DNA of 64,000 bases from Polyangiales bacterium (GCA_965227405.1 OZ245758.1:1449693-1513692); one strand, 5' to 3'. Positions 1 through 49,545 are shown, numbered from the stretch's first letter. Program-made: numbers and translations. The notes: a model not told the origin generated them from the sequence alone.

Positions 1-3000
1 GGTCATGCAAGCACCAACGCTGGAGCCACAAGCCGCTCCACCACCGGGGTCGCCCTCATCGACCGTACCGTCGCAATCGTCGTCACGTCGGTTGCACACC
101 TCGACCGCGGGGTCGGCAATGTCACAGGCGTATTCGCAGCCCGTCGCCTCGATTCCGTCGATGTCGTAGAAGCCGTCCTCGCAGGCACCCAAGCGGCACT
201 CGCCGGCCGAGCAGGTTGCTGCGGCATTGAGGAAGCGACACGTGCGACCGCAGCTTCCGCAGTTCTCGATGTCCGTGTCGAAGTCGAAGTCCTCGTCGAC
301 GTTGCCGTCGCAATCGTTGTCGCGGAAGTCGCAGATCGAGTCGTCGGCTCCTGTCGGAATACACCGGTATTCACAGCCATTTTCAGGATCTCCGTCGATG
401 TCGAAGAACCCGACATCGCAGCGATCGATGCCGCACACGCTGTCGATGCACGAAGGGAACGCGGCGGGCGGTGTACACGCCATTCCGCAACCACCGCAGT
501 TCTCGGTGTCCGTCGTGGTGTCGATGCCCTCGTCGATCAGCTCATCGCAGTCGTCGTCGCGCTCGTTGCAGAGCTCGGGGGCTCCGGGAACGCAACCCGC
601 GTCGATGTTGGCGTCAAAGCCTGCATCGAGATCGGCATCCGGGGTTCCGGTATCGGGTCGCGTTCCGTCGACTTGAGCGTCGACCGGGGGAGGACCTGCA
701 TCTTCGCAATCGATGCAGAAGGGTTCGACGTCACATCCGCCTAAAAGGAAGAGAGCGCCGAGTCCGAGAAGGGCCGCGATGCGGCCTCGGACTTTTCCCG
801 AGGACGTCGCGACCGAAGAGGCCTTTCCGTTCTTGCGACGGCGACGCCAGCCCACCAGGACGAACATCACCAAACCGAGCGCCCACGGCGTGGGTGCTTG
901 TGATGCCGGCGTACCTGGAACGGCACACGCGCATCCGCCACCGCCGGCGCCGAGAAGGCGCGTTCGATCGTCGCCTCCCGGTCCAGCATCCAGACCCCCT
1001 CCATCGACGCCGGCATCCGGCATGCTCATCTCGACACACTCGCCAGCTTCACACACCTGCTCGCCGGGACAGTTCAGTCCGACACAAGGATCCGCTTCGC
1101 AATCACCCGTCAGCGGATCGCAGATGGTCATCGCCGGGCAAAGCACACCGCGACACATGTCCTCGACGCAGCTTCCGTCGGTGGGATCGCACGCTTCGCC
1201 TGCAGGACAGCTGACTCCGCCACATGCGTCGTCCACGCAGACACCGCGCGCACAGCGCTCGCCGTCCGGACATTCGACGCCCGCGCAACTCGCGACGCAC
1301 TCGCCGTCGATACACGCTTCGGTCTCGTCGCACTCCACGCTGGCGCACGGATCGGTCTCGCACTCGCCGGTTTCGACGTTGCAGACCTCACCGGTCTCAC
1401 AACCCAGTGCGCGACAGCTGTCCTCGACACAGGTGCCGGTGTTCGGCTCGCAAACCGTTCCGTCGGCACACACCGTCCCGTCGCACGGGAAGGTACACGC
1501 GTTGTTCTTGCACGTGCACGAAGGCGTGTCGTCGTCCGGACTACACAGCACTTCGCCATCGCGTTCGATCGTTTGCGGCGAACACGTTTCGGGTGTGCAG
1601 GCCTCGGCGACGCAGAAGCACTCCTCGCCAACCTCGAGCGGCGTGCGGCCGGTCGGACACACAAATCCAAACTCGCTTCGCTCACACGGCAGCGCGCACT
1701 GGCAGTCAACGCAGGAGCTACCTTCCGGACACAACGCGCCGTCAGCTTCTTCGTCGACCGATCCGTCGCAGTCGTTGTCCTCGCAGTCGCAACCTTCGAT
1801 GCCGGGAGGCACCTCACCCACACAGACTTCGCGTCCGTCGATGCACTGCGACACACCTTCCATGCAAAGGCCTTCGTCAGACCCGCAGGCCATGCCGAGC
1901 GGCAAGCCCTCGTCGATCGTGCCGTCGCAGTCGTCATCAAATGCGTTGCAGACCTCTTCCACGGGGCCGATTTCACCGTCGCAAACAGTCATTCCATCGC
2001 GACAAATCGTGATTCCCGGGCTGCACAAGCCTTCCGCCGAGCCGCAGGGAGCACCCACGCCCAGACCGTCGTCGGCAAGGCCGTCACAGTCGTTGTCGAG
2101 CCCGTCGCAGATCTCTTCCGTGGGTCCGACATCGCCGACACACATCAACGCGCCACCGACACACTGGATCATGCCGGTCGAGCACTCGCCGGTATCGGAA
2201 CCGCACGTCGTACCTACATCCGGATCAGTTTCGTCGACTCTGCCGTCGCAGTCGTTGTCATCGCCATCGCAACGTTCGATGCCCGGTCCGATTTCACCGA
2301 TGCACGCGCCGAACGATCCCGACGTACACACTTGAACACCAGCACGACAGACACCTTCATCGGATCCGCAAGACCGACTCTGTCCATCCACGCGGCCATC
2401 ACAGTCGTTGTCGAGTCCGTCACAGACTTCCGGACCACCCGTGGTGGCAGTACAGCCCACCCATGTTCCGGCCATGCACGTTTCGGTACCGGCCATGCAC
2501 TCGCCGATATCCGATCCGCAACTTCGTGTTAGGCCCTCGTCCGTACTGCCGTCGCAGTCGTTGTCCATGTTGTCGCAGGTTTCTGCGCCCGTTGGGACGC
2601 AGCCCATACACACGTCACCTTCGTCGATGACGCCATTGCAGTTGTTGTCGAGACCATCGCAGACCTCGGCGGGAGGCGTTCCGCACAAACCACAGGCGTT
2701 CAACGGCTCATCGGCGGTGCCATCAAAGCAGTTGTCGTCCGACATATCGCAGTCGTCACCGGGGTTTGTGCAGTAGTCGAGACTCGCGGTGGGAGCGCCA
2801 AACGTGCCGTCCAAATCACAGTATTTCTGGAAGCCCTCGTCGATCAGACCGTCGCAGTCGTCGTCGTCTCCATCGCACACTTCGCTCAACAAGGTGTCCG
2901 CAATGATTTGCGAGAACGCGAGCGCGACACCTTCTTCACTGGTTGCAGGAAGCGCTGCGGTGGTTCCACCCGCAGCAGCAATCTGGTTCGCTTGACCGAT

Positions 3001-3615
3001 CAGACCCGCATTGCTTCCGAAGACGATCACGTGGGTCATGATGTCTTCGTTGGGTCCTCCCGCGATGGGCGTGTTTCGCAACCGAGTCGTCGCAGCGAGA
3101 GTGTTGGTCAGGTTGTTCGCGGTGTCGCAACAGGGTTCGCCATCGTGCAAGAGAATGACGCGGTACGGACGACATCCACGTGCAGGATCTCCCTGAACTG
3201 GTCCCGTCGCACTTTGGTAGTACGCGCGCACGTTATCCAACGCGTTCCGGATCGGTGTGACACCGCCTGCCGTCAGCTCCGTCGAGCCGACGAAATCAAC
3301 CCATTGAAGAATCGAAGGTTGGTTGTCCTCCGCAATCGGTGCGTGGATGGTGGTTCCCGTGCCGTACTCCTTGAATGAAGTCAGGCCGAACGTGACATCA
3401 CCAAAGCCATTGACGACTTGCTGCAACGCACACTTGGCATCGTTGAGTCGCGTACGCGGCTGACCACAGCTGTTGTTGCCACTGCCGGTCGACGAACCCA
3501 TCGATCCGGAGTCATCGAAGATGACCATGAAATACGGTTTGATCTGCGTCTGCGCAGAGACCGGGGAGGCTGCTGCAACCCACAGCAAGACAGCCGCCAA
3601 ACACCAACGCACCAT
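1..3615 (-). CDS. Large secreted protein, partial (C-terminus beyond the window start). Cleavable signal peptide, a von Willebrand factor A domain, then more than 20 Cys-rich DNDCDG-type (MopE-like putative metal-binding) repeats.
   Basis: Minus frame is open from ATG 3613-3615 to position 1 and has no stop in the window, so it is absent from the ORF track. Manual translation gives MVRWCLAAVLLWVAAASPVSAQTQIKPYFMVIFDDSGSMG (signal peptide plus VWA MIDAS DxSxS), then VILLHDGEP, then repeated CDGLDNDCDGxxDEG / CGSDxGxC modules. Plus-strand long ORFs here are S/P/T-rich antisense artefacts. Confidence 0.8.
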   Translation of the reverse strand, partial: MVRWCLAAVLLWVAAASPVSAQTQIKPYFMVIFDDSGSMGSSTGSGNNSCGQPRTRLNDAKCALQQVVNGFGDVTFGLTSFKEYGTGTTIHAPIAEDNQPSILQWVDFVGSTELTAGGVTPIRNALDNVRAYYQSATGPVQGDPARGCRPYRVILLHDGEPCCDTANNLTNTLAATTRLRNTPIAGGPNEDIMTHVIVFGSNAGLIGQANQIAAAGGTTAALPATSEEGVALAFSQIIADTLLSEVCDGDDDDCDGLIDEGFQKYCDLDGTFGAPTASLDYCTNPGDDCDMSDDNCFDGTADEPLNACGLCGTPPAEVCDGLDNNCNGVIDEGDVCMGCVPTGAETCDNMDNDCDGSTDEGLTRSCGSDIGECMAGTETCMAGTWVGCTATTGGPEVCDGLDNDCDGRVDGQSRSCGSDEGVCRAGVQVCTSGSFGACIGEIGPGIERCDGDDNDCDGRVDETDPDVGTTCGSDTGECSTGMIQCVGGALMCVGDVGPTEEICDGLDNDCDGLADDGLGVGAPCGSAEGLCSPGITICRDGMTVCDGEIGPVEEVCNAFDDDCDGTIDEGLPLGMACGSDEGLCMEGVSQCIDGREVCVGEVPPGIEGCDCEDNDCDGSVDEEADGALCPEGSSCVDCQCALPCERSEFGFVCPTGRTPLEVGEECFCVAEACTPETCSPQTIERDGEVLCSPDDDTPSCTCKNNACTFPCDGTVCADGTVCEPNTGTCVEDSCRALGCETGEVCNVETGECETDPCASVECDETEACIDGECVASCAGVECPDGERCARGVCVDDACGGVSCPAGEACDPTDGSCVEDMCRGVLCPAMTICDPLTGDCEADPCVGLNCPGEQVCEAGECVEMSMPDAGVDGGGLDAGPGGDDRTRLLGAGGGGCACAVPGTPASQAPTPWALGLVMFVLVGWRRRRKNGKASSVATSSGKVRGRIAALLGLGALFLLGGCDVEPFCIDCEDAGPPPVDAQVDGTRPDTGTPDADLDAGFDANIDAGCVPGAPELCNERDDDCDELIDEGIDTTTDTENCGGCGMACTPPAAFPSCIDSVCGIDRCDVGFFDIDGDPENGCEYRCIPTGADDSICDFRDNDCDGNVDEDFDFDTDIENCGSCGRTCRFLNAAATCSAGECRLGACEDGFYDIDGIEATGCEYACDIADPAVEVCNRRDDDCDGTVDEGDPGGGAACGSSVGACMT

Positions 3616-3837
3616 TGGAACCCTCCAGCGTTACTGGAAATCGTACACCATCTTGGGGATAAAAACCCGCATGTAACGCTGAGGGGGTCTGCTCGTACTG
3701 ATGATGTAGCGTGTGGTCTCCGCGTTGCTGGGGTCATCCCCGTCGATCACAACCCCGGCGGTTAATCCGAGCAGTCCCCTCCCCTCCTTTGCTCGATTCC
3801 ACCCTGGCGCGCGGCGGCCCTCGCGATAACGTCGCGG

Positions 3838-4611
3838 ATGCTCGCGACGACCCGGCTCGGCGACGGCGACAAGACGTTCGTGTTTTTGCACGGCGTGTTT
3901 GGCCGAGGCTCCAACTGGCGCACGATCGCTCGAAAGTTCGTCGACGCGCGGCCTGAGTACAGCGCGCTTTTGGTGGATCTTCGGCTTCACGGAGACTCGT
4001 TGGACCTGTCTCCGCCGCATACGGTCGAACGAGCTGCCCAAGATGTTCTTGCGCTCGGTTCGATTCACGGAATCTCGGGGCACTCGTTTGGCGGGAAAAT
4101 CGCCATTGAAGTGGCGCGACATACACCGCTCGAATCGTTGTGGATCTTGGATTCGATGCCGGGTCCACGACCGGATCGTCGTGGATCTGAAGCAATTTCG
4201 AAGGTGATGGACGCGTTGCGCGCCGTGGACCGGAACTTCGAGACACGCGACGCGTTCGTCCAAGCGCTCGTGGCCCAAGGGCTCGTCGAACCGATCGGTC
4301 GTTGGTTGGCCATGAGCTTGAAGCGCGGCGACTCGGGCTTTGAGAAAGTGGTCGATGTCGACGCGATCGACGGAATGCTCGACGACTACTTCGCTCTGGA
4401 TCTCTGGCCTGCACTCGAATCGCTGGAAACCGAGACGCACTTGGTGATCGCAGAACGCTCAGAGGTGTTCGATACCGATGACCGAGCTCGGGCCGCGTCG
4501 ATCACCCGAAACGGCTTCCATGTCGACCACGTCAACGCTGGCCACTGGCTGCACGTGGAAGCGCCGACAGCGCTTTTGGCGTTGATGACTGCTTCTCAAG
4601 AAAAGTCTTAA
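3838..4611 (+). CDS. alpha/beta-fold hydrolase
   Basis: HGVFGRGSNW oxyanion region, GHSFGG nucleophile elbow (GxSxG), C-terminal HVDHVNAGHWLHVEAP with catalytic His. 257 aa. Confidence 0.85.
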   Translation: MLATTRLGDGDKTFVFLHGVFGRGSNWRTIARKFVDARPEYSALLVDLRLHGDSLDLSPPHTVERAAQDVLALGSIHGISGHSFGGKIAIEVARHTPLESLWILDSMPGPRPDRRGSEAISKVMDALRAVDRNFETRDAFVQALVAQGLVEPIGRWLAMSLKRGDSGFEKVVDVDAIDGMLDDYFALDLWPALESLETETHLVIAERSEVFDTDDRARAASITRNGFHVDHVNAGHWLHVEAPTALLALMTASQEKS

Positions 4612-4694
4612 GCAGAGCCTAAGACATTGTAATTGCTGAATTTTCTGCGACAAAAAGCTGTGAATCAGAGTCGGGTTGGGCCGGTCCAAATATC

Positions 4695-5381
4695 ATGAAA
4701 CGGACCTTGCCCCTTCTCCTTCTCAGCGCGGTCGCCTTTGCTCAAGAAGGCGGTGACGAACTCGCCGCTCCGAGTGCAGCCACCAGTGCTCATCGAGTCG
4801 CTTCGGAAGTTCAGGCGTTCTACGACCAAACCGATACGTTCTCGGCCCGCTTCACGCAGACGTACTACCACCGCCTCTACCAACGCTATCAGCGTTCAAA
4901 CGGTCGGTTCTACTTCGACAAGCCTGGTCGCATGCGCTTCGACTACGCGCAGCCCAACGGCAAGGTCATCGTGAGCGACGGAAGCCACTTCACTGCGTAC
5001 GACCCAGGTGACGAAGGTGAAGCTGGGCAATACGTAAAGGCGCCGGTCGGCGACAGCTCACTTCCGCGCGCGTTTGGTTTCCTGACCGGGCACGGACGGA
5101 TTCTCGACGACTACCGTGTGAGCCTCTTGGACTCAAACCGATATCGGTGGAGTGGTCCTGTGTTGGAGCTTCGTCCGCGTAACTCGGATCCGCGAATCCG
5201 ACGCATCCTTCTTTACGTCGATGGTGATGCCCGTCGTCCGGGTGTGGTGCACCGCATCCGAATCGACGACCACGAGGGCAACCGGAACAAGTTCGAGATG
5301 CGTCGAATGCGCTTCAACCGGGATATGTCGTCGTCACGCTTCGCGTTTAGCCCGCCGCGTGGAGCGCATCGTATCCAGTAG
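4695..5381 (+). CDS. LolA-like outer-membrane lipoprotein carrier or sorting protein, with signal peptide
   Basis: N-terminal MKRTLPLLLLSAVAFAQ signal. LolA-like segment FTQTYYHRLYQ...GRFYFDKPGRMRFDY...KVIVSDGSHFTAYDP. Confidence 0.7.
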   Translation: MKRTLPLLLLSAVAFAQEGGDELAAPSAATSAHRVASEVQAFYDQTDTFSARFTQTYYHRLYQRYQRSNGRFYFDKPGRMRFDYAQPNGKVIVSDGSHFTAYDPGDEGEAGQYVKAPVGDSSLPRAFGFLTGHGRILDDYRVSLLDSNRYRWSGPVLELRPRNSDPRIRRILLYVDGDARRPGVVHRIRIDDHEGNRNKFEMRRMRFNRDMSSSRFAFSPPRGAHRIQ

Positions 5382-5589
5382 TCATTTTGCAGCTAGTGGA
5401 TGGACTCACAGTTCTGGAGTCCATCCGTGTTCCATCGCCAGCGTTGTTCGACCAAAATGACTAGAGGTAAGGTGATGGAAACGGTCGGCGGCTCCCACTC
5501 GCCTAGTCATTTTGCTCGAACAACGCCACAACACAGCACGGATGCACACCGGTAAGAGTGAAACGAGTCGTGCACGAGCAAAATGACTA
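5379..5589. repeat. Cluster of four copies, in two inverted pairs, of the AT-rich 11-12 bp motif TAGTCATTTTGC / GCAAAATGACTA. A 23-bp inverted repeat (gcgttgttcgaccaaaatgacta ... tagtcattttgctcgaacaacgc, 1 mismatch) spans a 40-bp centre.
   Basis: Copies at about 5379-5390, 5453-5463, 5504-5515 and 5578-5589. The last copy overlaps the ATG at 5583 of the downstream gene. The AT-rich motif stands out in a ~68% GC background. Confidence 0.6.
5398..5426 (+). terminator. Perfect 10-bp stem / 9-nt loop hairpin (ggatggactc-acagttctg-gagtccatcc) 17 nt after the LolA-like stop. No U-tract.
   Basis: Read directly. The reverse complement of the left arm equals the right arm. Confidence 0.5.
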
Positions 5590-6149
5590 AGTGGGTCAGC
5601 GCCTGCGTCCTCGGCGAAGCACTCGGTCTTTCGCTCGCCGCTCTCCTCGGCGCATTCGTTTCGCGTCTGAGCGACGATGGATCCGGACTCGTCATCTTGA
5701 TGCCGATCATCGGTCTCCTTGAAGGCGCCGTCCTCGGCGCGTTTCAAGCGTGGGCACTCGGTCGCGGTCGAAAGTGGATCCTCGCTACGAGTCTCGCGAT
5801 CGGCGCGGCTTGGTTGGTGGGCGCGCTCGCGTCGACACTTGAACCACGCGTCACATCCCCACTGCTCATCCTGGGTGTCGCACTCTTGTTTGGACTCCTG
5901 GTTGGAGCTGCCGTTGGACTTGCACAAACACGCGTCGCGAATGCATCACACCATTGGTTGATCGCCAACGTTGCGGGTTGGTCGACCGGACTCGTCGCAA
6001 GCGCACTACTCAGCGAAATGGTTCCGTGGGGGCCATTCACGGCCTACGTGTTCGCGATCGAAGCACTCAAGGGAATCGCAGTGGGTCTCTGTCTCGGCCT
6101 GGTGACAGCACCGTATCGAAACCGGATCCAAGTCGCGCACCAAAACTAG
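5583..6149 (+). CDS. Hypothetical integral membrane protein (about 4-5 TM helices)
   Basis: Hydrophobic and Gly/Ala-rich throughout (LGLSLAALLGAFV, LLILGVALLFGLLVGAAVGLA). No recognisable catalytic motif. Confidence 0.5.
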   Translation: MTKWVSACVLGEALGLSLAALLGAFVSRLSDDGSGLVILMPIIGLLEGAVLGAFQAWALGRGRKWILATSLAIGAAWLVGALASTLEPRVTSPLLILGVALLFGLLVGAAVGLAQTRVANASHHWLIANVAGWSTGLVASALLSEMVPWGPFTAYVFAIEALKGIAVGLCLGLVTAPYRNRIQVAHQN

Positions 6150-6253
6150 GCAAATTCAGCCTCAAAATTCGCGACGCACCGGTCACAAGTTCTACCAATC
6201 ATTGGACTTTTACAGATCCGATGACATTTCTTTTACTTTTCTTGGCCAAATAC

Positions 6254-6332
6254 ACTGACACGTCAGTCTAGTTGAGCTAGAACCGCCCGGTTCGCGCGGA
6301 AACTGACACGTCAGTCTAGTGACCGCGCGGTC
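6254..6332. promoter_or_regulatory. Two 19-bp direct repeats (actgacacgtcagtctagt), each containing a 6-2-6 palindrome ACTGAC-N2-GTCAGT and each followed by a GC-rich palindrome (gaaccgcccggttc, gaccgcgcggtc). They lie 45-120 bp upstream of the lipid operon and are a candidate operator pair.
   Basis: Copies at about 6254-6272 and 6302-6320. Palindromes at about 6281-6294 and 6321-6332. Confidence 0.5.
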
Positions 6333-6376
6333 GCTAAATACCCGAATTCCGGGCGATTTCTGTGAGGGACGAATCG

Positions 6377-7039
6377 ATGAAGACCGCTGCTTTCTTCCGT
6401 GTGGAAGGGACACTGACCGAGCGCACCGCGATTGGCGCGTCGGCTTGGTTGGCGAGCAACGCTCAAAAGATGGGAGAGCGCGTCGCGCGCCTCGGCAACA
6501 TCGCGTTGGCTGCGCCGTTTGCGATTCTTGGCGAGCTGCAAACCGGCTCGACCGCTGCACGCATGACGTGGATGGGTCTGCGCGGAATGAGCGAAGACCG
6601 GATCGCGTTGCTCGGTGAAGAGTACTTCGAGAAGTTTCTCAAGAACGACGCGTTGGAGATCGGAACGCGCTTGTTGAAGCAAGCGAAGAAGGATGGTCGA
6701 CGCATCGTTCTGATCAGCGACAACATCGACCACGTGATCGCTCCCTTCGCAGAGGAGCTCGGTGCAGACGATTTGATCTGCAACCGACTGGAGATGCGAA
6801 AGGGTCGCGCCACCGGTGCACTCGAAGAGCCGATCATCGGCGGCAACGTCACCGGGCAGTGGGCCCGCGGCTTTGCCACCGAACACGAGATCGATTTGAT
6901 GAGCTCGTGGGCGTACGGCGCGAGCGCAGCCGACAGCTTGCTCCTCAGCGCAATCGGTCAGCCCTGCGCAGTGAATCCCGACCGTCAACTTCGTCGTCTC
7001 GCCAAGGACCACGACTGGCCCGTCGTGGAGAAGAACTGA
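6377..7039 (+). CDS. HAD-superfamily subfamily IB-like hydrolase with a degenerate motif I (FFRVEGTLT in place of the canonical DxDGT)
   Basis: RBS GAGGGA upstream of ATG 6377. HAD-IB-like GRRIVLISDNIDHV and AYGASAADSLLLS (motif IV). Both nucleophile and acid Asp positions are substituted (R, E). Stop overlaps the next start (TGATG). Confidence 0.7.
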   Translation: MKTAAFFRVEGTLTERTAIGASAWLASNAQKMGERVARLGNIALAAPFAILGELQTGSTAARMTWMGLRGMSEDRIALLGEEYFEKFLKNDALEIGTRLLKQAKKDGRRIVLISDNIDHVIAPFAEELGADDLICNRLEMRKGRATGALEEPIIGGNVTGQWARGFATEHEIDLMSSWAYGASAADSLLLSAIGQPCAVNPDRQLRRLAKDHDWPVVEKN

Positions 7040-8667
7040 TGACCACCCAGAAGCACAAGATCACCGGTATTCGCGATCGCCGCACGCTGGCGGAAACCTT
7101 CGCAGGCAAGAACCTCTTGGTCACCGGAACCTCCGGTTTCCTCGGCAAGGTCTGGCTGGGGATGGTGCTCGACTACCTGCCCGAGGTCGGCAAAATCGTG
7201 GTCGTTCTCCGCGGCAAAAAGGATCAGAGCGCCGAAGAGCGCTTCGTCCGCATCTTTGAGCGCAGCCCGGTGTTTCGCCCGCTTCGCGAACGACTTGGCC
7301 AAGAACTCCGCACCTTGATCGCCGACAAGATCGAGTTGCTTGACGGTCGTCTTACCGAGCCCTTTGCGGGCATGGATGAGAAGCGTGCTGCCGAAGTCAT
7401 GCGCGACATCGACGCCGTTGTGCACTTCGCGGGACTCACCGACTTCGAACCGGATCCCCAAGACGCCATCGACGCCAACATTCACGGCGCGTGGAACATG
7501 GCCGACCTCGCCGCCCTGAGTCGCGGCAAGCGCTACATCCACGTATCGACCACCTACGTGGCGGGTGTTGCCGACGGTCGAGTTGAAGAGTCGATCACGG
7601 CTGGCATCAGCCCCAACGGCACCGAGATCAATCCGCGCGCTGAAGTGCTGGCAATGGAGACGTTGATCCGCGCCGGCGAGACCAAGAAAGAGCGTCTGGC
7701 GATCGCGCGTGCACGCGCCGCGGAACTCGGCTTCCAGAACGTCTACACGTACACGAAGAGCCTCAGCGAGCACTTGATCGAAGAGCGCACGGACGTGAAG
7801 ACCACCACGTTCCGTCCCGCCATCGTCGAATGCGCACGCAGCTACCCCTTTGCCGGTTGGAACGAAGGCATCAACACCTCGGGTCCGCTGGTGTGGTTGC
7901 TCAGCACGCCCTTCCGCCGTTTGCCGGCCAAGAACGACATCTACTTCGATGTGGTTCCCGTCGACACTGTCGCGCGCTCGATGGTGCTCGTGGTGGGCGA
8001 TGCGCTTCGCGACGACGCGGAAGACGTCTACCAGTGCGGTTCGGGGTATCTGAACCCACTGATGATGCATCGCGCGATGGACCTGACCACGTTGGCGCTC
8101 CGTCGCACCGACGGCAGCTTTTTCACCAAGATCGATAGCTACTGCATGGACAACGCCGTCGAGCGTGAGCAGATCTTCGGCTACGCGCGGATGCGGCAAG
8201 CCAGCGCTGCACTGCGGAACACGCTTCGCAACTTGAAGCTCGAGCGCAAACTGCCGCCTTCGCTCTACGAGCGTCTCGGCGGAGACAAACTCGGCAAGAA
8301 CATCGAGTCGTTCCGCAAGACGCTTCGCGGAACGGAAAAGATGCTCGGCATGGTCGACAAGATGCTGCGCCAGTACCGGCCCTTCATCTACGACTACAGC
8401 TATCTCTTCGTCACCGAAAACCTCAAGCGAGCCAGTGCACGTTTGAGCGACGAAGACCGCGCACTCTTCGGCTTCGACGTCGAAACGATCGACTGGCGCT
8501 ATTACTGGTCGAAGGTCCAAGTCCCCGGTCTTGAGAAGTGGTCGATTCCGCTGCTCAAGGGCGAGACCGTTCCCGACGACGAGGCGTTGCCGCCCGCGTC
8601 CGACGGTGTTCGCACCAAGGGTGCGCTTCGCGAAGAGCGCAAAGAGATCCGCGCAACGGTCGCGTAG
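7039..8667 (+). CDS. Fatty acyl-CoA/ACP reductase-like protein (NAD_binding_4 'male sterility' thioester-reductase domain plus C-terminal FAR-like domain)
   Basis: Start ATG 7039 overlaps the upstream stop. LLVTGTSGFLGKVWL Rossmann GxxGxxG. YTYTKSLSEH (YxxxK). About 540 aa, typical of FAR enzymes. The track ORF from 6859 carries a spurious N-terminal extension. Confidence 0.85.
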   Translation: MTTQKHKITGIRDRRTLAETFAGKNLLVTGTSGFLGKVWLGMVLDYLPEVGKIVVVLRGKKDQSAEERFVRIFERSPVFRPLRERLGQELRTLIADKIELLDGRLTEPFAGMDEKRAAEVMRDIDAVVHFAGLTDFEPDPQDAIDANIHGAWNMADLAALSRGKRYIHVSTTYVAGVADGRVEESITAGISPNGTEINPRAEVLAMETLIRAGETKKERLAIARARAAELGFQNVYTYTKSLSEHLIEERTDVKTTTFRPAIVECARSYPFAGWNEGINTSGPLVWLLSTPFRRLPAKNDIYFDVVPVDTVARSMVLVVGDALRDDAEDVYQCGSGYLNPLMMHRAMDLTTLALRRTDGSFFTKIDSYCMDNAVEREQIFGYARMRQASAALRNTLRNLKLERKLPPSLYERLGGDKLGKNIESFRKTLRGTEKMLGMVDKMLRQYRPFIYDYSYLFVTENLKRASARLSDEDRALFGFDVETIDWRYYWSKVQVPGLEKWSIPLLKGETVPDDEALPPASDGVRTKGALREERKEIRATVA

Positions 8668-8676
8668 GGAGTCGAC

Positions 8677-9831
8677 ATGTCCGATGTAGTGTTCATCACC
8701 GGAGCGACCGGTTACCTCGGGTCGTACGTGCTCGACGCTTACCTGCGCGACACCGACAAGACCGTCGCTGTGCTTACGCGTGCGAAGAACCGCGACGAGG
8801 GTCTCGAGAAGCTGTGGAAGGCGCTGCAGCTCCACATGGACGCCGACACGTTTTGGCAGACCATCGATCGCGTTCAGATCGTCGCGGGTGACTTGCAGCA
8901 ACCCAAGCTTGGCATCGAAGACGCGACCTACGATCGGTTGGTTCAGCAGAGCGAATCGATTCTGCACATCGCTGCCTCGCTCAACCGCAAGAGCGAAAAG
9001 GCGTGTCTGAACCACAACCTCAAGGGCACGTTGTCCATGTGCAAGCTCGCTCGGGCCGCACACGACCATCACGGACTGCGTCGCTTTAGCTTTGTGTCGA
9101 CCACGGCGATTGCTGGAAAGCGCAATGCCGAAACGCTGACCGAAGACCAAGCACTCGAGTGGGATCGCTCGGACTACGACCCTTACGCGCGCACAAAGAA
9201 GTTTTGCGAGCACATGGTTGCTGAGCTTCTGCCCGACGTGGAGCGCACCATCTTTCGACCCAGCACTGTTCTCGGTGACTCGCGTCATCCGCGCAGCACC
9301 CAGTTTGAAATGGTGCAGGCGTTCAACACCGTGTTCTCGATGCCGGTGTTCCCGGTTCGTCCCGAAGCACGCATCGACATCGTCAACGCTGACTGGGTCG
9401 GTCGCGCGATGTTTGAACTGCATCGTCGTCCCGCCAAGTACGACTGCTATCACCTCTCCGGTGGCGTGGCGTCGCCGCAGGCTCGCGAGATCGCCAAGGA
9501 GATGGCCAAGGTGGGTCGTCGCGCGCCGGTGATGATTCCGCAGCTCTTGGGCGCCACGCAGTTTGCGTTCGATCAGATCGCCAGCCTGCCGCAGCGCAAC
9601 ACGGCGACCTACATCGGATCGCTGTTCAAAGTGTTCCTGCCCTACATCACCTTCGACACCGTGTTCGATAACGCACGTGCCGTCGAAGACACCGGACTGC
9701 AGCCGACGAGCTTTCTCGAGTACGGCGCGCCTTACGCCGAGTGGTGTCGCGCGCAGAAGTACCGCTTCCCCTACCAGCCTTTGCCGGCGCGACCGACGCG
9801 CGTGGCCGTCCCGACCGGAGCGAACCCGTGA
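8677..9831 (+). CDS. Second NAD_binding_4-type (thioester reductase / NAD-dependent epimerase-like) protein
   Basis: VVFITGATGYLGSYVL Rossmann motif, YARTK (YxxxK), FRPSTVLGD. 384 aa. Confidence 0.8.
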   Translation: MSDVVFITGATGYLGSYVLDAYLRDTDKTVAVLTRAKNRDEGLEKLWKALQLHMDADTFWQTIDRVQIVAGDLQQPKLGIEDATYDRLVQQSESILHIAASLNRKSEKACLNHNLKGTLSMCKLARAAHDHHGLRRFSFVSTTAIAGKRNAETLTEDQALEWDRSDYDPYARTKKFCEHMVAELLPDVERTIFRPSTVLGDSRHPRSTQFEMVQAFNTVFSMPVFPVRPEARIDIVNADWVGRAMFELHRRPAKYDCYHLSGGVASPQAREIAKEMAKVGRRAPVMIPQLLGATQFAFDQIASLPQRNTATYIGSLFKVFLPYITFDTVFDNARAVEDTGLQPTSFLEYGAPYAEWCRAQKYRFPYQPLPARPTRVAVPTGANP

Positions 9832-11573
9832 GTGAGAAGAAGAAAGAGCGGAAGGTTAAGATCTGGCGTCCAAAGGTCGAGGCTGAAGAGCCTGCTCCCA
9901 AAGAGGAAACCACCGCGATCACGCCGTCGGCACCGGCCAGTCTTGATGTGCGCGGGTTGCTCGACGACCTGCGTGCCTCCGTCGAAAAGCGCGACAAAGA
10001 AACACTCGTCGGTCTGTTCAAAGACATCGGCCGTGTTTCGTTCGACCGCATCAGCGAGTACGCCGACGCCGACCGCGCCCTGATGATCGCCATGAGCGGG
10101 TTCATCGAGGCCGCCGCAAGCCGTTACGCCATCGACCCTGGAGCACAGTGGGCTCAGGGTGAACCGCTTCGGCTACTCCTCGCTGGATATAGCGGTACGC
10201 GCAACACCGGTGCTGACGTTCGCGTCGAAGAGATGATTCGTCAGTTCCGCCATCTCTTTGGCGATGAGCATGTGGCGCTAAGCATCTTCACGCTCGATCC
10301 CGAGCTGACCAAGGGCTACTTCCGCACCGTTCGTCAGCTGGAACTGCCCAAGCTCTTCCCGAAGTTCCTCTTCGACACGATTCACGATCAGCACGCCGTC
10401 ATCGCGTGCGAGGGATCGATGTTCAAGAGCAAGTTCGCCAACGCGCTGAGCACCATGATGGTCGGCGCGATCGGTTTGGCTGCTGCCGAAGGTAAGCTGG
10501 CTGTGGGCTACGGCGGCGAAGCCGGCAAGATGGACAAGTCGCTGGCTCGCCTGGTGAAGAAGTACTGCCAGGACGCGCTGATCATCGCGCGCAACGAGAA
10601 CAGCAAGAAGATCCTGGGCGACCTCGGCGTCGCTTCGCGCAGTGGAACCGACACCGCGTGGACCTTCGATCCTGCACCGCCCGAGGTGGGTCGCAAGATC
10701 CTCATGGACCAGGGCTGGGACGGCAAAATGCCGATTCTCGCGCTGTGTCCGATCAATCCCTTCTGGTGGCCGGTCAAACCGCATGTGCGTCGCGCCGCGA
10801 TCAACGCCGCAACCGGTGTCTACAAGGACAGCCACTACGGCAGCGTCTACTTCCACAAAACCGGCTTCGACGTGGTCGAAGCACAGCACCGCTACTTGGG
10901 TTCGATCGCAACAGCCGTCGTGAAGGTGTTGTCCGAGGGCGAGCGCTTCTTCCCGGTCATGTTCGGCAGCGAACAGCTCGACCGCGAAGCCTGTGAGTCG
11001 ATCGACCGCAAGTTGGTACGTCGCTTGGGAGCGTTCGCGCCCACACGACCGGACGGCTCCAAGGGCTTCCCGATCATCGTCAGCGATGAGTACGACATGT
11101 ACCAGATGGTCAGCGCGATGCGTCAGTCCACGTACATGATCAGCAGCCGCTACCACGCGTGTGTCATGACCATGGCCGGCGGTGTTGTGTCCGGTGGCGT
11201 CACCATGGACGAACGCATTCGCAACCTGATGAAGGACCGCGGCACACCCGAGCTTGCGCTCGAGGTGGACGATCCGGATCTCTACGAGAAGACCTGCACG
11301 ATGATCCGCCACATGATCGCCAACGCGGATTCGATTCGCGAAGGCATCGATGGTTGTGTGTACGCCAACCTCGAACGCATGGGTGAGATGGGCCAGATTC
11401 TGGTCGACCACGTGCGCAAGCATCACCCGGAGTTCCCGTTCCGACCGGAGCTCGGTGAACACGGCGACCCCTGGGATCACCTGCCGACCTTGCCGCCTGC
11501 TGTGGCCGAGTTGGTGCAGCGTGTTCGTGCCCGAGGCCCCAAGGCCGTTCCGCAGTTGGAAGCACGAGCATGA
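9828..11573 (+). CDS. Polysaccharide pyruvyl transferase family (CsaB/WcaK/ExoV-like) protein with an about 100-aa N-terminal extension
   Basis: Probable GTG start at 9828 in a GTGA overlap with the upstream stop. The start is uncertain, and an internal ATG near 10080 is an alternative. LLLAGYSGTRNTGADV matches the family signature GYYGxxNxGD. C-terminal ISSRYHACVMTMAGGVVSGGV matches the conserved R-h-H C-terminal block. Confidence 0.65.
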   Translation: MSEKKKERKVKIWRPKVEAEEPAPKEETTAITPSAPASLDVRGLLDDLRASVEKRDKETLVGLFKDIGRVSFDRISEYADADRALMIAMSGFIEAAASRYAIDPGAQWAQGEPLRLLLAGYSGTRNTGADVRVEEMIRQFRHLFGDEHVALSIFTLDPELTKGYFRTVRQLELPKLFPKFLFDTIHDQHAVIACEGSMFKSKFANALSTMMVGAIGLAAAEGKLAVGYGGEAGKMDKSLARLVKKYCQDALIIARNENSKKILGDLGVASRSGTDTAWTFDPAPPEVGRKILMDQGWDGKMPILALCPINPFWWPVKPHVRRAAINAATGVYKDSHYGSVYFHKTGFDVVEAQHRYLGSIATAVVKVLSEGERFFPVMFGSEQLDREACESIDRKLVRRLGAFAPTRPDGSKGFPIIVSDEYDMYQMVSAMRQSTYMISSRYHACVMTMAGGVVSGGVTMDERIRNLMKDRGTPELALEVDDPDLYEKTCTMIRHMIANADSIREGIDGCVYANLERMGEMGQILVDHVRKHHPEFPFRPELGEHGDPWDHLPTLPPAVAELVQRVRARGPKAVPQLEARA

Positions 11574-12540: not shown

Positions 12541-12777
12541 ATGCAACGCGAAGAACTGATCAAGAAGCTGATTCAACTGGCGGCCAAGCGCTTCGAGCGC
12601 GGCGACGACCTTTCAGGCGCCGACGATTTCTTTGAGCGACTGGGTATCGACTCGTTCCAGGCGATGGAACTGATGACCGACCTCGAAGAAGAACTCGACG
12701 TCGAGATTCCGGACTACGAGCTGCAGGGCGTCAACACGTTCGAGAAGCTCGCCGACGTCATCGCACCGCGGTTGTGA
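12541..12777 (+). CDS. Acyl carrier protein
   Basis: 78 aa, acidic. LGIDSFQAMEL contains the phosphopantetheine-attachment Ser (DSL/DSF motif). Confidence 0.85.
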   Translation: MQREELIKKLIQLAAKRFERGDDLSGADDFFERLGIDSFQAMELMTDLEEELDVEIPDYELQGVNTFEKLADVIAPRL

Positions 12778-12781
12778 AGTC

Positions 12782-14488
12782 ATGATCCCGCCTGAACGAT
12801 ACAACTCGGTTGGCGAGCTGCTGCGCGACGCGTGCATCACGTACAAGACCGAAACGGCTTTGCTCGAGTACGACCGCAAGAACGAGAAGGCGTGTCTCTC
12901 GTACCTGGATGTAAAGCGCCAAGGCGAGCGACTTGCTCGACGGCTTCAGGATGCCGGCGTGGGTGCGGGCGACCGCGTGGCGATCGTAATGAGCAACCAG
13001 TCCAAGTGGCTGATCGCCGCCTACGCGATTCTCTATCGCGGCGCTGTGCTGGTTCCGCTGGACTACAAGCTCACCGGCCCCGAGCTGGAAAGCCTGCTGC
13101 AGCACGCGAAACCGAAGGTTTTGATCACCGAGTTCGCCTCCTGGCGAACCATGAAAAACATCGAAGAGCTCGAGTGTTTGAAGATCGTCAGCGAGATGCC
13201 CGACGGGACGGAAGGCACCTTCGAAGCCTGGGATGCGATGCCCGACACGCCGGGTGAGTTCGTGCCTCGACAGCGCAGCGACCAAGCGACGCTGGTGTAC
13301 AGCTCCGGAACCGGCGGTCAGCCCAAGGGCTGCATGCTCACGCATGACAACTACCTGGAGCAGTACCGCACTCTGATTCAACTCTTTCCGTTCAAGGTTG
13401 GGGATCGCTACTTCTCGATCCTGCCAACCAACCACGCGATCGACTTCATGGTCGGATTCGTGGGTCCCTTTGCATGCGGTGCTACTGTGGTGCACCAGCG
13501 TAGCCTTCGTCCGGATCTGATCCGTTGGGTGATGACCAAAAAGAAGATCACGCACATGGCTGTCGTGCCGCTGATCCTCGAAGCGTTCGAGCGGGCGATT
13601 CGAGAGAACCTGGACAAGAAGAACGACGTCATTCAGGTGGCGTTCGAACACGCCAAGCGACTCAATGCTGCGCTGACGTTGCAGAAGCCGCGACGCGGTG
13701 TGAGCCGTCGCTTGATGAAGCCGGTGCTCAATGGCATCGGTCCGCGCCTTAAGATGCTCTTTGTCGGCGGTGCTTTCGTCGATCCCGATCGTGCGCAGTT
13801 CTTCTACGACGTCGGGCTTCCCGTCGTGATTGGCTACGGATTGACCGAAGCCTGCACGGTCTTAACCGTCAATGATCTCAGGCCTTTCCGCTCGGACTCG
13901 GTCGGTCGTCCACTCGAGGGTGTCGAGATCGAAATCCGCAATGCGGACGACAAAGGTGTCGGCGAAGTGTGGGTCAAGAGCCGCACAGTGTTCGCCGGTT
14001 ACCTCGACGAGCCAGAGCTGACCGCCGAAGTTCTTCAAGACGGATGGCTGCGCACCGGTGACCTCGGTTGGCGCGATCCAAGTGGTCACCTTCACCTCGT
14101 CGGTCGCAGCAAGAACATGATCGTCACGGCCGGTGGTAAGAACATCTACCCCGAAGACATCGAGATCGCGTTCGAAGGTGTCGACTGCGAAGAGCTTGTC
14201 GTGTTTGCGTCCGGCTACGTGTGGCCTGCGAGTGGCGGCAAGGAGCTGACCAAGGAATCGCTCTTTGCCGTGGTGCGTGGCAAAGACGGCTCGGTCACCG
14301 ACGACGTGCTCGCTGACCTTCGTCAGCGCAACCACAAGTTGCCCGACTTCAAGCGTGTGGCCGGTGTGCTCGATTGGGACGACGCGTTTCCGCGCACCGC
14401 ATCGATGAAGGTGAAACGCGGCATCCTGGCCGAACAGATTCGTGAGAAGGCCAATGTCGACGCCATTCGGAGGATCGCGCTCGGATGA
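12782..14488 (+). CDS. AMP-dependent synthetase/ligase (fatty acyl-AMP/CoA/ACP ligase)
   Basis: LVYSSGTGGQPKGCMLTH AMP-binding motif I. GYGLTE and GWLRTGDLG motifs. 568 aa. Confidence 0.9.
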   Translation: MIPPERYNSVGELLRDACITYKTETALLEYDRKNEKACLSYLDVKRQGERLARRLQDAGVGAGDRVAIVMSNQSKWLIAAYAILYRGAVLVPLDYKLTGPELESLLQHAKPKVLITEFASWRTMKNIEELECLKIVSEMPDGTEGTFEAWDAMPDTPGEFVPRQRSDQATLVYSSGTGGQPKGCMLTHDNYLEQYRTLIQLFPFKVGDRYFSILPTNHAIDFMVGFVGPFACGATVVHQRSLRPDLIRWVMTKKKITHMAVVPLILEAFERAIRENLDKKNDVIQVAFEHAKRLNAALTLQKPRRGVSRRLMKPVLNGIGPRLKMLFVGGAFVDPDRAQFFYDVGLPVVIGYGLTEACTVLTVNDLRPFRSDSVGRPLEGVEIEIRNADDKGVGEVWVKSRTVFAGYLDEPELTAEVLQDGWLRTGDLGWRDPSGHLHLVGRSKNMIVTAGGKNIYPEDIEIAFEGVDCEELVVFASGYVWPASGGKELTKESLFAVVRGKDGSVTDDVLADLRQRNHKLPDFKRVAGVLDWDDAFPRTASMKVKRGILAEQIREKANVDAIRRIALG

Positions 14489-15387
14489 GCGACAAGACCA
14501 CCGTGATTGTGAACGGCGCCGCGGGTGGCGGACGTTGTCGTGAAGCGGCCCAAGGTGCGCTGAGTCGGCTTCGTGCGCTCGGCATCGAAGCGGACGTACA
14601 CTACACGGAGCGAGCCGGACACGCCTCGGAACTAGCTAAAAATGCTTACAATTCTGGATGTCGCGAGCTCGTTTCGGTGGGTGGGGACGGAACCACGTAC
14701 GAAGTGGTCAACGGACTCTTTCCGCGGCCGGCGGGACATGACGATCCCGTTCGGCTCGGCATCTTGCCCTTGGGTACCGGCAACTCGTTCTTGCGCGACT
14801 TCAATGTGATGAACACGAGTGACGCATTGGATGCGCTTACACGACGTCGTGCACGAAGCATCGACGTGGTTCGCGTGAAGCACTCCACGGGAGTGTTGCA
14901 CTACATCAACTTGCTCACGATCGGTTTCGTCACGAACGCCGGTGATCTGACCAACCGACGCTTCAAGCCCTTCGGCGAAGCCGGCTACCTGATGGCCGCG
15001 ATGGTCTGCATCGCGCGTCTGAAGAACTCGAGCGATCCGATCCGCATCGACGACGGAGATATCGACGCACGTCCGGCACCGTTCTTGGTGTTCTCGAACA
15101 GCCAGTTCACCGGGGGTTCGTTTCACATCGCTCCGCATGCAGATCCCACCGACGGTGAGATCGATGTCATCCGCGCTGTGCCGATGAACCGTGGTGCGTT
15201 CGTGAAGAACCTACTGGCTGTCTACAAAGGCAAGCACGTTGAAGATCCGCGCGTGGAAGAGCGTCGAGCCAAGAAGGTGACGTTCCAAAGCCCACGCGAG
15301 CACTTGGTGATGCTCGACGGAGAGATTTTGCCGCTGACGCTTGAGTCGCTGGAAGTGATGCCGAGCGCCTTGGAGGTTTGGGCATGA
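14485..15387 (+). CDS. Diacylglycerol-kinase catalytic-domain lipid kinase (YegS/BmrU-like)
   Basis: ATGA overlap. VIVNGAAGGGR and VSVGGDGTTYEVVNG (GGDGT) motifs. Confidence 0.8.
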   Translation: MSDKTTVIVNGAAGGGRCREAAQGALSRLRALGIEADVHYTERAGHASELAKNAYNSGCRELVSVGGDGTTYEVVNGLFPRPAGHDDPVRLGILPLGTGNSFLRDFNVMNTSDALDALTRRRARSIDVVRVKHSTGVLHYINLLTIGFVTNAGDLTNRRFKPFGEAGYLMAAMVCIARLKNSSDPIRIDDGDIDARPAPFLVFSNSQFTGGSFHIAPHADPTDGEIDVIRAVPMNRGAFVKNLLAVYKGKHVEDPRVEERRAKKVTFQSPREHLVMLDGEILPLTLESLEVMPSALEVWA

Positions 15388-16247
15388 GTACCGCCGCAAA
15401 GCCTGCTGGAACCGAGAAAAAGCTCGATCCGAACAACCCCGCTCATGCCTCGCATATTGGCGACTGGCGCGAGTGGCGGCCGAGTTTGGTCGACCGCGCA
15501 CTCAGTGGCTTGTGTTGGGGAACCGCAGTGTCGTGGTTGGTGGGATGGACCAACGTCCTGACGCCGATGAACTACATCTTCGGTGCGCACAAGATCCCAG
15601 TGCATCGACTGAGTCAGTTCTTCTCGCGTGGATTGGTCGCGTCCACGTTTTCGTCGTGGAAGGCCTGGGTGCATCCCGATGTGCGTGACGACGAGCAGTA
15701 CATTTTCTGCCAGAACCACATCAACCACTTCGACTTCATCACGATGTATCCCGCCACCCCGCACTACAAGCAGGGGCTCGAGCTGGAGACGCACTTCAAG
15801 TACCCCGTGTACGGCCAGTTCATGAGTAGTCGAGGTACGGTCCCGGTTCCGGCGAATCGCGACAAGCGCTTCGATGCGGTGCGCGAAGGCATCCGCACGG
15901 AGCTTGAGGAAGGCCGAAGCATTCTGGCGTTTCCTGAGGGCACGCGGACATTGAGCGGTCGCGTCGGACCGTTTCGGTCGGGTGTGTTTCGCGTGGCGCG
16001 CGATGTCGGCGCAAAGGTTGCCCCCACCGCTGTGGTCGGGATGTACGACGTGATGCGCAAGGGTTCGCTGATGTTGCGGCCTTTCGGTGATGTCCGCGTG
16101 TTCATCGACAAACCCGTTGATTTCACGGGTGTTTCCGACGACGAGCTACCCGCCAAGATCGACGAGGTTCGCAACGCGATCGTCCGTCGTGTCGACGACT
16201 ATTTCGAGGAGAAGCAGTCATGCCAAGCACCGAGGAAGCGCGGATGA
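15384..16247 (+). CDS. 1-acyl-sn-glycerol-3-phosphate acyltransferase family (PlsC/AGPAT-like) protein
   Basis: ATGA overlap with the kinase stop. NHINHFD (HX4D catalytic motif) and AFPEGTR (motif III). Confidence 0.85.
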   Translation: MSTAAKPAGTEKKLDPNNPAHASHIGDWREWRPSLVDRALSGLCWGTAVSWLVGWTNVLTPMNYIFGAHKIPVHRLSQFFSRGLVASTFSSWKAWVHPDVRDDEQYIFCQNHINHFDFITMYPATPHYKQGLELETHFKYPVYGQFMSSRGTVPVPANRDKRFDAVREGIRTELEEGRSILAFPEGTRTLSGRVGPFRSGVFRVARDVGAKVAPTAVVGMYDVMRKGSLMLRPFGDVRVFIDKPVDFTGVSDDELPAKIDEVRNAIVRRVDDYFEEKQSCQAPRKRG

Positions 16248-16870
16248 GTTCCGTGGATCGTCGTACGGAGCGCGCGACGCGTAAGCGTCGTGATCGCCGT
16301 AAGGCGATCCTACAGGCCGCCCGTCACGTGTTTGCGGAGAAGGGATTTCACCGCACGCACGTCAGCGACATCATCGAAGCGGCGAACATCGCACGCGGCA
16401 CGTTCTACCTGTACTTCGAGTCGAAGAACGCGATCTTTCTGGAGCTGCTCGAGGGTCTGATCGGCGAGGTGCGCGAGAGTATCGTCGGCGTGGATACCAA
16501 GGAAGGCGCACCTCCCGTGCAGCTTCAGCTCGCGCATACATTGCGGCGCGTGTTGGCCACGGTGGTCGAGAACCGGGATCTGACGCGTATTTTGGTGCGT
16601 GAGGCCGTGGGTCTGGGCGAAGACGTCGATGCGCGACTCAACACGTTCTACACGAACTTGTTGGAGTACATCCGGCAGGCTCTGGACAACGGGCAAGAGA
16701 TGGGGATTCTGCGCGAGAGCATGGATACGCATCTCGCATCACTCTGTGTGCTGGGAACGATCAAGTCGTTCATGGAGCAGCTGGTGATGGACGAAGACGG
16801 ATTGGGTGATGACGTCGACCGATTAGTGGTGGCGGTGCTCGACTTTAATCTTCGAGGGTTGCTGAAGTAG
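16244..16870 (+). CDS. TetR/AcrR-family transcriptional regulator
   Basis: HTH RKAILQAARHVFAEKGFHRTHVSDIIEAANIARGTFYLYFESK. ATG 16244 overlaps the AGPAT stop (ATGA). The track offers an alternative start at 16220. Confidence 0.85.
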   Translation: MSSVDRRTERATRKRRDRRKAILQAARHVFAEKGFHRTHVSDIIEAANIARGTFYLYFESKNAIFLELLEGLIGEVRESIVGVDTKEGAPPVQLQLAHTLRRVLATVVENRDLTRILVREAVGLGEDVDARLNTFYTNLLEYIRQALDNGQEMGILRESMDTHLASLCVLGTIKSFMEQLVMDEDGLGDDVDRLVVAVLDFNLRGLLK

Positions 16871-49354: not shown

Positions 49355-49545
49355 GAATCCCTTTCCTTGTGTCGTCGTTCGCCCCGACGACTCCTTGCGG
49401 TAGCTGGCGCTGACGAATCGGTCAAAAATTCGCAGCTCAGGAGGGAAATCCACGCGAAATCCCCCACATTCCGCCGTCAGGGATTCCCTCCCTCAAAAGC
49501 AGCGCAATGTTGCGCGCGATCTCGGGTGTTGGTAGCAGCGTGGAC

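Follow-up and report, generated by a model that had tools for sequence, protein, structure and literature searches.

A divergent pyruvyl-transferase-like protein conserved in an elb-like lipid operon of Myxococcota and Acidobacteriota

We analyzed a 64,000-nt stretch of a Polyangiales bacterium genome (GCA_965227405.1 OZ245758.1:1449693-1513692; hereafter the window, with all coordinates counted from its start), which has a GC content of ~60% across its whole length. The gene at 9828-11573 on the + strand encodes a divergent protein of the polysaccharide pyruvyl-transferase superfamily, abbreviated here as PvT, and lies within a ten-gene lipid operon. The genes are listed below with their family matches and with the number of syntenic loci that share them. 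These counts come from the best 80 of at least 585 genomes that matched in a scan of one genome per species; more distant carriers, including any Myxococcia, fall outside this set. The locus contents were determined by mapping the window proteins onto the surveyed loci and from the gene calls there. Genes upstream of PvT were counted in the 63 loci with enough flanking sequence, and downstream genes in 53 loci.

6362-7039, + strand: HAD-IB-like protein (ElbB-like), first gene of the operon; PF12710, 74.8 bits; 56 of 63 loci
7039-8667, + strand: alcohol-forming fatty acyl reductase (FAR; NAD_binding_4 plus Sterile domains); PF07993, 155 bits, and PF03015, 35 bits; motifs GTSGFLG and YTYTK; 56 of 63 loci
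8677-9831, + strand: stand-alone short-chain dehydrogenase/reductase (SDR) of the thioester-reductase type (ElbE/ElbA-like); PF07993, 138 bits, and TIGR01746, 130 bits; motifs GATGYLG and YARTK; 56 of 63 loci
9828-11573, + strand: PvT, divergent and GT-B-like, 581 a.a.; PF04230 as the single Pfam match
9828-10061, + strand: lineage-specific N-terminal extension of PvT (residues 1-78), comprising a basic tract with a K-[VI]-W-R-P motif (residues 9-15), a disordered linker and two variable helices
11570-12532, + strand: crotonase-fold enoyl-thioester hydratase; PF00378, 115.6 bits; 44 of 53 loci
12541-12777, + strand: acyl carrier protein (ACP), 78 a.a.; PF00550, 47.8 bits; phosphopantetheine-attachment serine in DSF; 39 of 53 loci
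12782-14488, + strand: acyl-activating enzyme ACS1 (AMP-binding); PF00501, 235 bits; 40 of 53 loci
14485-15387, + strand: YegS/DAGK-type lipid kinase; PF00781 and PF19279; TIGR00147, 140 bits, above its cut-off of 118.65; motif GGDG; 39 of 53 loci
15378-16247, + strand: AGPAT-type glycerolipid acyltransferase; PF01553, 60.5 bits; motifs HX4D and FPEGTR; 33 of 53 loci
16220-16870, + strand: TetR-family regulator, last gene of the operon; PF00440, 62.5 bits; 18 of 53 loci

All of these genes are on the + strand, and every junction is either an overlap or a gap of no more than 9 nt. The ATG of FAR overlaps the stop codon of the HAD-like gene (TGATG), the PvT start codon, GTG, lies in a 4-nt overlap (GTGA) with the end of the SDR gene, and the PvT stop in turn overlaps the ATG of the crotonase gene by 4 nt. 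The operon is translationally coupled. A promoter and terminator scan of the operon found nothing above the shuffled expectation. The PvT start site is supported because a homologue with 89% identity over 100% of the length has exactly the same size, 581 a.a. Family scans of the operon detected no glycosyltransferase, flippase, polymerase or sugar-nucleotide gene, and the same was true of the syntenic loci. The immediate neighbors are as a preliminary description of this DNA had named them: FAR and the thioester-reductase SDR upstream, and the crotonase and a separate ACP downstream. Two long antisense open reading frames, at 6985-9453 (- strand, 822 a.a., opposite FAR and the SDR) and at 10278-11480 (- strand, 400 a.a., opposite PvT), were set aside as high-GC artefacts, since the + strand genes match their families strongly.

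The assignment of PvT to the pyruvyl-transferase superfamily, made earlier from two motifs, was borne out by several approaches. Both motifs are present, GYSGTRNTGADV at residues 120-131 and RYHACVMTMAGGV at residues 441-453. A hidden Markov model search with PF04230 (PS_pyruv_trans) gave a significant match over residues 224-453 (32.5 bits, E 1.1e-7; the gathering cut-off is 25.3), and homologues of PvT reach up to 60 bits with the same model. The only NCBIfam match, the model of CsaB (TIGR03609), covers residues 115-284 with 52.4 bits, which is far below its equivalog cut-off of 213.1. We then aligned 38 family members, the most divergent of them 23% identical to PvT, and compared the resulting profile with E. 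coli WcaK by hhalign, which returned a probability of 97.7% (E 2.4e-12, 253 columns), as opposed to 2.9% for the control, the neighboring GT4 glycosyltransferase WcaL. The Pfam scan of PvT matched no glycosyltransferase family, and the likeness to GT-B glycosyltransferases is at the level of the fold only. An AlphaFold model built from the family alignment (pLDDT 89.6, pTM 0.84) places a disordered segment at residues 1-39, helices at 41-102, two Rossmann-like domains at 114-480 and a helical C-terminal domain at 485-569; its fold matches are GT-B-like and include Pvg1p. Searching the solved structures with PvT or the 38-sequence profile (phmmer, hmmsearch), and with WcaK, yielded nothing relevant.

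PvT thus shares the PF04230 superfamily and the two-domain GT-B-like fold with WcaK, CsaB of Paenibacillus alvei and Pvg1p of S. pombe, and it retains the N-terminal G-[YF]-x-G-x-x-N-x-G motif and the G-x-D-T-A-W motif of the ketal-pyruvyl transferases. It differs from these three proteins in being ~150-250 a.a. larger and very distant in sequence; the additional parts are the N-terminal helices, an insertion at about residues 308-370 (NPFWWPV...HYGSVYFH) and the C-terminal helical domain at 485-569. In a library-wide phmmer search, 659 clusters (at 50% identity) were found at E<=1e-3 and 176 at E<=1e-30, and judging from such searches the PvT family appears to be a deep, separate branch of the superfamily.

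The binding site for phosphoenolpyruvate (PEP) is apparently intact in this branch. In CsaB, mutagenesis or docking identified R148, R306, H308 and K328 as PEP residues, with R217, R337, H339 and K361 as the Pvg1p equivalents (PMC10435577). The WcaK alignment pairs ARNENS with LRESVS, GTDTAW with GVDTAW and SSRYHA with GTRLHS (PvT and WcaK, respectively), from which R255 of PvT would correspond to R148 of CsaB, R441-x-H443 to R306-x-H308, and R463 to K328. The PEP-site Lys of CsaB is accordingly an Arg in PvT, and R463 lies exactly 20 residues past H443, which is the spacing of K328 past H308 in CsaB. R255, H443, D461 and R463 are invariant in the 38 family sequences, and R441 is at least 90% conserved. 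We regard this mapping as suggestive.

The preliminary description also pointed to an N-terminal extension of about 100 a.a. rich in Lys and Glu. An extension does exist, but it covers residues 1-78, and its Lys/Glu richness is limited to residues 1-30 (47% K+E); residues ~79-110 fall within the conserved family core, which spans approximately residues 75-565. Residues 1-39 are predicted to be disordered (pLDDT <50), and residues 41-78 form the variable helices. The lengths of the N-termini across the family are bimodal, and the GY.G..N.G motif, which begins at residue 120 in PvT, has a median position of 72 in the family. At the extreme N-terminus, residues 9-16 (KVKIWRPK; window 9852-9875) form a basic-[VI]-W-R-P or K-[VI]-W-R-P motif that is common to the homologues with a long N-terminus (for example P0004, P0008, P0014, P0018, P0021 and P0080) and that takes the form RWRPAA in Sandaracinaceae. 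This motif might serve in docking or membrane contact.

Homologues of PvT with 52-89% identity are mostly found in metagenome-assembled genomes of Myxococcota. The best 80 loci belong to Polyangiales, Sandaracinaceae, Nannocystaceae (including the cultured Paraliomyxa miuraensis) and Acidobacteriota (Terriglobia and Blastocatellia). The gene order recurs in both phyla, with the HAD-like protein, FAR and the SDR upstream of PvT in 56 of the 63 loci. The preliminary description had asked whether orthologues co-occur with FAR and AGPAT genes; FAR is found in 56 of the 63 upstream regions and AGPAT in 33 of the 53 downstream ones. A second ligase, ACS2, which is ~27% identical to ACS1, directly follows PvT in 38 of the 53 loci (for example L010, L011, L014 and L034); it is absent from the whole window and from the nearest relatives.

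The linkage also holds in the reverse direction. When metagenome contigs were searched with the crotonase, 14 orthologues had 3.5 kb or more of sequence upstream, and all 14 carried PvT there, either adjacent or separated by ACS2 only, while none of the operon genes was found near ~40 crotonase paralogues of <42% identity. Because of this difference, we conclude that PvT and the crotonase are reciprocally linked core genes and not chance neighbors.

Two gene fusions link PvT physically with an enzyme that activates carboxylates and with the reductase that forms the fatty alcohol. P0182 (967 a.a.) is a fusion of PvT to an AMP-binding ligase domain, the latter being an orthologue of ACS2 (median 240 bits to ACS2, versus 102 bits to ACS1). 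Its locus also encodes a thioester reductase, a short-chain dehydrogenase and a fusion of fatty acyl-AMP ligase (FAAL) to thioester reductase; a 240-a.a. gene at the same locus was considered as a crotonase and ruled out (hhalign, 0.1%). In P0124 (640 a.a.), the C-terminal Sterile domain of FAR is fused to PvT, and the gene is flanked by a stand-alone NAD_binding_4 protein on one side and by a crotonase-ACP-ligase block on the other. The lipid context, which had been noted as unexpected for this family, is thus conserved in two phyla, reciprocally tied to the crotonase and reinforced by the fusions. Taken together, PvT is very probably a lipid-pathway enzyme of the pyruvyl-transferase type, not a polysaccharide one, and the best reading is that a dedicated lipid pathway took it over from carbohydrate chemistry.

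The operon resembles the ether-lipid operon elbABCDE of M. xanthus (MXAN_1531-1527; MIBiG BGC0000871; PMC13012113). ElbA and ElbE are proteins of the NAD-dependent epimerase/dehydratase type, ElbB is a HAD protein, ElbC is described without a known function, and ElbD is a multidomain protein with FAR-like, acyl-activating, ACP and AGPAT parts (PMC9131029). The ElbD domains are PF01553, PF03015, PF00501, PF07993 and PF00550, ElbB has PF12710, and MXAN_1529 (ElbC) is annotated as DUF2088/PF09861 (PMC9548883 supplement). Compared by domain set, the window operon has all five ElbD Pfam domains, distributed over four separate genes, together with an ElbB-type HAD-IB protein (PF12710, 6362-7039) and an ElbE/ElbA-type SDR (NAD_binding_4/Epimerase, 8677-9831). 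In place of ElbC, it has PvT, the crotonase and the lipid kinase, plus the second ligase in most genomes. PvT is homologous to no Elb protein and matches PF04230 alone; its identification with ElbC was rejected in view of the DUF2088/PF09861 annotation of MXAN_1529 (PMC9548883 supplement), and neither the window operon nor the called genes of the syntenic loci yielded a DUF2088 gene. The operon is elb-like, but it is not elb. A 2026 preprint on sponge symbionts describes elb-like clusters with diacylglycerol kinases and acyltransferases and makes no mention of a pyruvyl transferase, and we found no relevant paper when we searched the literature for pyruvyl transferases or enolpyruvyl groups in connection with ether lipids or fatty alcohols.

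Because the ACS ligase is fused or adjacent to PvT, and the hydratase-competent crotonase and the thioester reductase are obligatory partners, the context suggests that a pyruvate-derived carboxyl and vinyl group is processed further, as a building block and not as a decoration. Each element of the context points to one part of such a pathway. The carboxylate of the PvT product would be processed next, because ACS2 follows PvT in most genomes and is fused to it in P0182; a fatty alcohol would be the acceptor, because the Sterile domain of FAR is fused to PvT in P0124. Hydration would follow, because the crotonase keeps both catalytic Glu residues: its GGGFELAL and FPELRLG segments align with the catalytic Glu residues of the hydratase PaaF, unlike those of the isomerase PaaG.

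We therefore put forward, tentatively and as the best of the readings considered, though one less likely than not, a pathway in which PvT makes a carboxyvinyl ether from a fatty alcohol and PEP, which is then processed to an ether phosphatidate. An activated fatty acid would be reduced to the fatty alcohol by FAR. PvT would hold PEP via R255, R441-x-H443 and R463, and the alcohol would attack C2 of PEP, as in MurA or in the first half-reaction of ketal formation. Since a mono-alcohol cannot close the ketal, the reaction would halt at the enol ether, giving an alkyl 1-carboxyvinyl (enolpyruvyl) ether, and this would be the ether-forming step. The carboxylate would next be adenylated and thioesterified, by ACS2 where it is present and in the window by the single ACS plus ACP. 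The resulting 2-alkoxyacryloyl thioester, an alpha,beta-unsaturated thioester and hence of the natural substrate class of crotonases, would be hydrated to an O-alkyl-glyceroyl thioester, which the thioester-reductase SDR would convert by four-electron reduction to an alkylglycerol. It follows from this chemistry that the three-carbon backbone of the alkylglycerol would come from PEP. Finally, the lipid kinase and AGPAT would turn the alkylglycerol into the ether analogue of phosphatidic acid. We infer this scheme as the simplest chemistry using all of the partners: every conserved gene is employed, and both fusions are explained.

The transfer of an enolpyruvyl group to a hydroxyl by MurA and the processing of its vinyl group by MurB are established peptidoglycan biochemistry. 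As in the steps proposed for PvT, PEP donates its carboxyvinyl group to an alcohol, and the C=C bond of the resulting enol ether is subsequently altered by another enzyme. In the Mur pathway, however, a sugar nucleotide serves as the acceptor, and the vinyl group undergoes reduction with the carboxylate left in place, whereas the vinyl group would be hydrated in the PvT scheme. The fold of MurA, an inside-out alpha/beta barrel with a catalytic Cys, is unrelated to that of PvT; CsaB and Pvg1p, alongside which MurA has been discussed, have no conserved Cys (PMC10435577). With respect to the pathway, the role proposed for PvT is that of AGPS (MXAN_1676 in M. xanthus), namely joining a FAR-derived alcohol to a C3 unit via an ether (PMC9131029). 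AGPS is a flavoenzyme that swaps the acyl group of acyl-dihydroxyacetone phosphate (acyl-DHAP) for an alkyl group to give a 1-O-alkyl product, whereas the PvT scheme uses PEP and predicts a 2-O-alkyl one. The window operon contains no AGPS-type gene.

Several observations weigh against this scheme, in which the acceptor, the donor and each later step are deduced from the gene context. Its main weakness is the prediction of 2-O-alkylglycerol. The monoethers MxAEPE and TG-1 of M. xanthus are written as 1-alkyl (PMC9131029), as is the i15:0 monoalkyl glycerol ether of Solibacter usitatus, which also has 1,2-diethers and lacks ElbD (PMC10087280); both organisms may or may not carry this operon. 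The elb cluster with which M. xanthus produces its ether lipids contains neither PvT nor a crotonase, and PvT is therefore not generally needed for Elb-type ether formation. ACS2 is missing here and in the closest relatives, so that both acids would depend on the one ACS, unless an extra partner takes part. The assignment of the PEP residues depends on one profile alignment with WcaK and on motif spacing, and the loop-1 Arg of CsaB, R207, has no placed counterpart. In addition, some relatives at ~40% identity or less lie in non-lipid contexts: L019 beside AAA and FG-GAP proteins, L087 beside transposases and a DegT gene, L088 beside a sulfatase and a UbiA gene, and L089 (an ENA freshwater metagenome contig, genes 1-10495, ~42% identity) beside a large nonribosomal peptide synthetase, a thiamine-pyrophosphate-dependent enzyme and a Lipase_3 gene, in each case with no lipid operon. 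Because of these four loci, the lipid role is confined to the orthologous core group; judging from L089, the family may be used in secondary metabolism too. The broader claim, that PvT is the ether-bond catalyst of an unrecognised route independent of oxygen and AGPS, that PEP supplies the glycerol backbone of alkylglycerolipids and that the route, which would put the alkyl chain on C2, could account for sn-2 ether bonds of missing origin in aerobic members of Acidobacteriota and Myxococcota, is in our estimate rather improbable.

The main competitor of the carboxyvinyl-ether scheme is that PvT ketal-pyruvylates a lipid diol, whether an alkane-1,3-diol or a monoalkyl- or monoacyl-glycerol with its free vicinal diol, to give an anionic carboxy-ketal lipid. 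All characterised family members form ketals on 1,3- or 1,2-diols (PMC6801904, PMC10435577), and the PEP-site residues are conserved in PvT. A 1,3-diol could in principle be supplied by the crotonase, ACP and the reductases, through reduction of a 3-hydroxyacyl thioester, and the ketal carboxylate, which might then be activated by ACS2, would account for the adjacency and fusion of that ligase as well. Against this, we found no pyruvate-ketal lipid in the literature searched, and an enzyme that merely decorates would be expected to be optional, yet the linkage of PvT with the crotonase holds in both directions. Nor does the operon encode an acyl-ACP or acyl-CoA dehydrogenase from which the crotonase could receive its enoyl substrate, and the source of the ether bond in an elb-like operon would be left unexplained. 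Ketal formation on a lipid diol is thus a serious possibility, although we consider it unlikely. The preliminary description had suggested that PvT may act on a glycerol or polyol head group, or else on a sugar linked to a lipid; since the operon encodes neither a glycosyltransferase nor a flippase and lacks sugar-nucleotide genes, this idea gained no specific support, and the diol ketal is the form in which it is retained. The acceptor of PvT, encoded in a lipid operon that lacks glycan genes, is likely to be a lipid alcohol and not the saccharide diol used by its relatives.

It is also conceivable, with a still smaller probability, that PvT is a GT-B-fold enzyme that has given up PEP. Its conserved Arg/His pocket would then accommodate a different phosphorylated or anionic ligand, for example glycerol-3-phosphate, DHAP, the phosphopantetheine of an acyl-ACP or a nucleotide-activated group, and the protein would carry out some other transfer reaction or serve as a scaffold for FAR, the reductase and ACP. 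The Pfam score only modestly above threshold, the widely missed CsaB equivalog cut-off, the N-terminal acceptor domain that does not align to WcaK, the large family-specific insertions and the C-terminal helical domain would all fit such a loss. What speaks for a retained PEP function is that the R-x-H motif and the basic residue at +20, which define the PEP site, are invariant; PvT has no glycosyltransferase Pfam match and separates sharply in the profile comparison (WcaL 2.9% versus WcaK 97.7%), and the operon has no sugar-nucleotide genes. That PvT is an ordinary polysaccharide pyruvyl transferase lying beside lipid genes by chance is effectively refuted by the synteny and the fusions. Homologues are automatically annotated as 'polysaccharide pyruvyl transferase WcaK-like', and a few distant relatives do lie outside lipid operons; however, the start and stop codons of PvT overlap both neighbors, the synteny extends across two phyla and is confirmed by the reverse test, PvT is fused to an acyl-activating enzyme and to the C-domain of FAR, and the operon has no polysaccharide genes. 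The canonical pyruvyl transferases are, moreover, beyond the reach of phmmer: only 659 clusters at 50% identity attain E<=1e-3, and the homologues listed are labelled WcaK-like or at the family level, none being annotated as CsaB, WcaK or ExoV itself.

Other genes in the window deserve a brief description. Motif I of the HAD-like protein reads F-R-V-E-G-T-L instead of F-D-x-D-G-T-L, with the nucleophile Asp replaced by Arg and the Asp at +2 by Glu, and the catalytic signature typical of HAD phosphatases is lost. The R-x-E-G form is kept in ~60 syntenic loci of Myxococcota and Acidobacteriota (for example L001, L004, L059 and L080), and the gene product is probably either a conserved pseudo-phosphatase or a binding subunit put to a new use. 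Downstream of the TetR gene, a class-V aminotransferase is encoded at 17937-19085 (+ strand), with two small open reading frames without family matches in between; in L092, the closest metagenomic relative (66% identity), the aminotransferase gene (13360-14451) directly follows TetR, and it may be a further conserved neighbor of the operon. Within 14 kb, at 19087-22070 (- strand), 26253-29287 (- strand) and 29414-32436 (+ strand), there are three tandem pairs of a DUF1552 gene (HXXSHH) and a DUF1592/DUF1588/DUF1585/DUF1595/DUF1587 gene, the PSD/PSCyt names of whose domains were coined for planctomycete proteins. Another membrane-lipid-related gene, at 46295-49453 (- strand), encodes a 1052-a.a. 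fusion of a lysyl-phosphatidylglycerol-synthase-type transmembrane domain (PF03706) to a sulfatase/phosphodiesterase.

The ether-forming step of the M. xanthus Elb pathway is unassigned (PMC9131029), and the enzymes behind the ether bonds of Acidobacteriota, including those of the branched glycerol dialkyl glycerol tetraethers (GDGTs) that serve as palaeoclimate proxies, are debated (PMC10087280, PMC11868695, PMC13159169). The present analysis identifies a large conserved family, labelled in databases as polysaccharide pyruvyl transferase, that in Myxococcota and Acidobacteriota is a fixed component of an elb-like lipid operon. Few reactions are known that attach an alcohol to a carbon skeleton, and enolpyruvyl transfer from PEP is one of them, which makes PvT a concrete candidate for a PEP-dependent step in the synthesis of a bacterial lipid, probably an ether lipid. 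Within the pyruvyl-transferase superfamily, it fits best as a functionally new variant at work in an elb-like lipid pathway. Searches that screen for ElbD homologues are likely to merge at least two types of operon, one with ElbC/DUF2088 and the other with PvT and the crotonase. If the PEP route is true, it would bear on the diether precursors of the branched GDGTs. Even if the proposed mechanism is wrong, a lipid-pathway, non-carbohydrate enzyme of the pyruvyl-transferase superfamily would still widen the known scope of this family.

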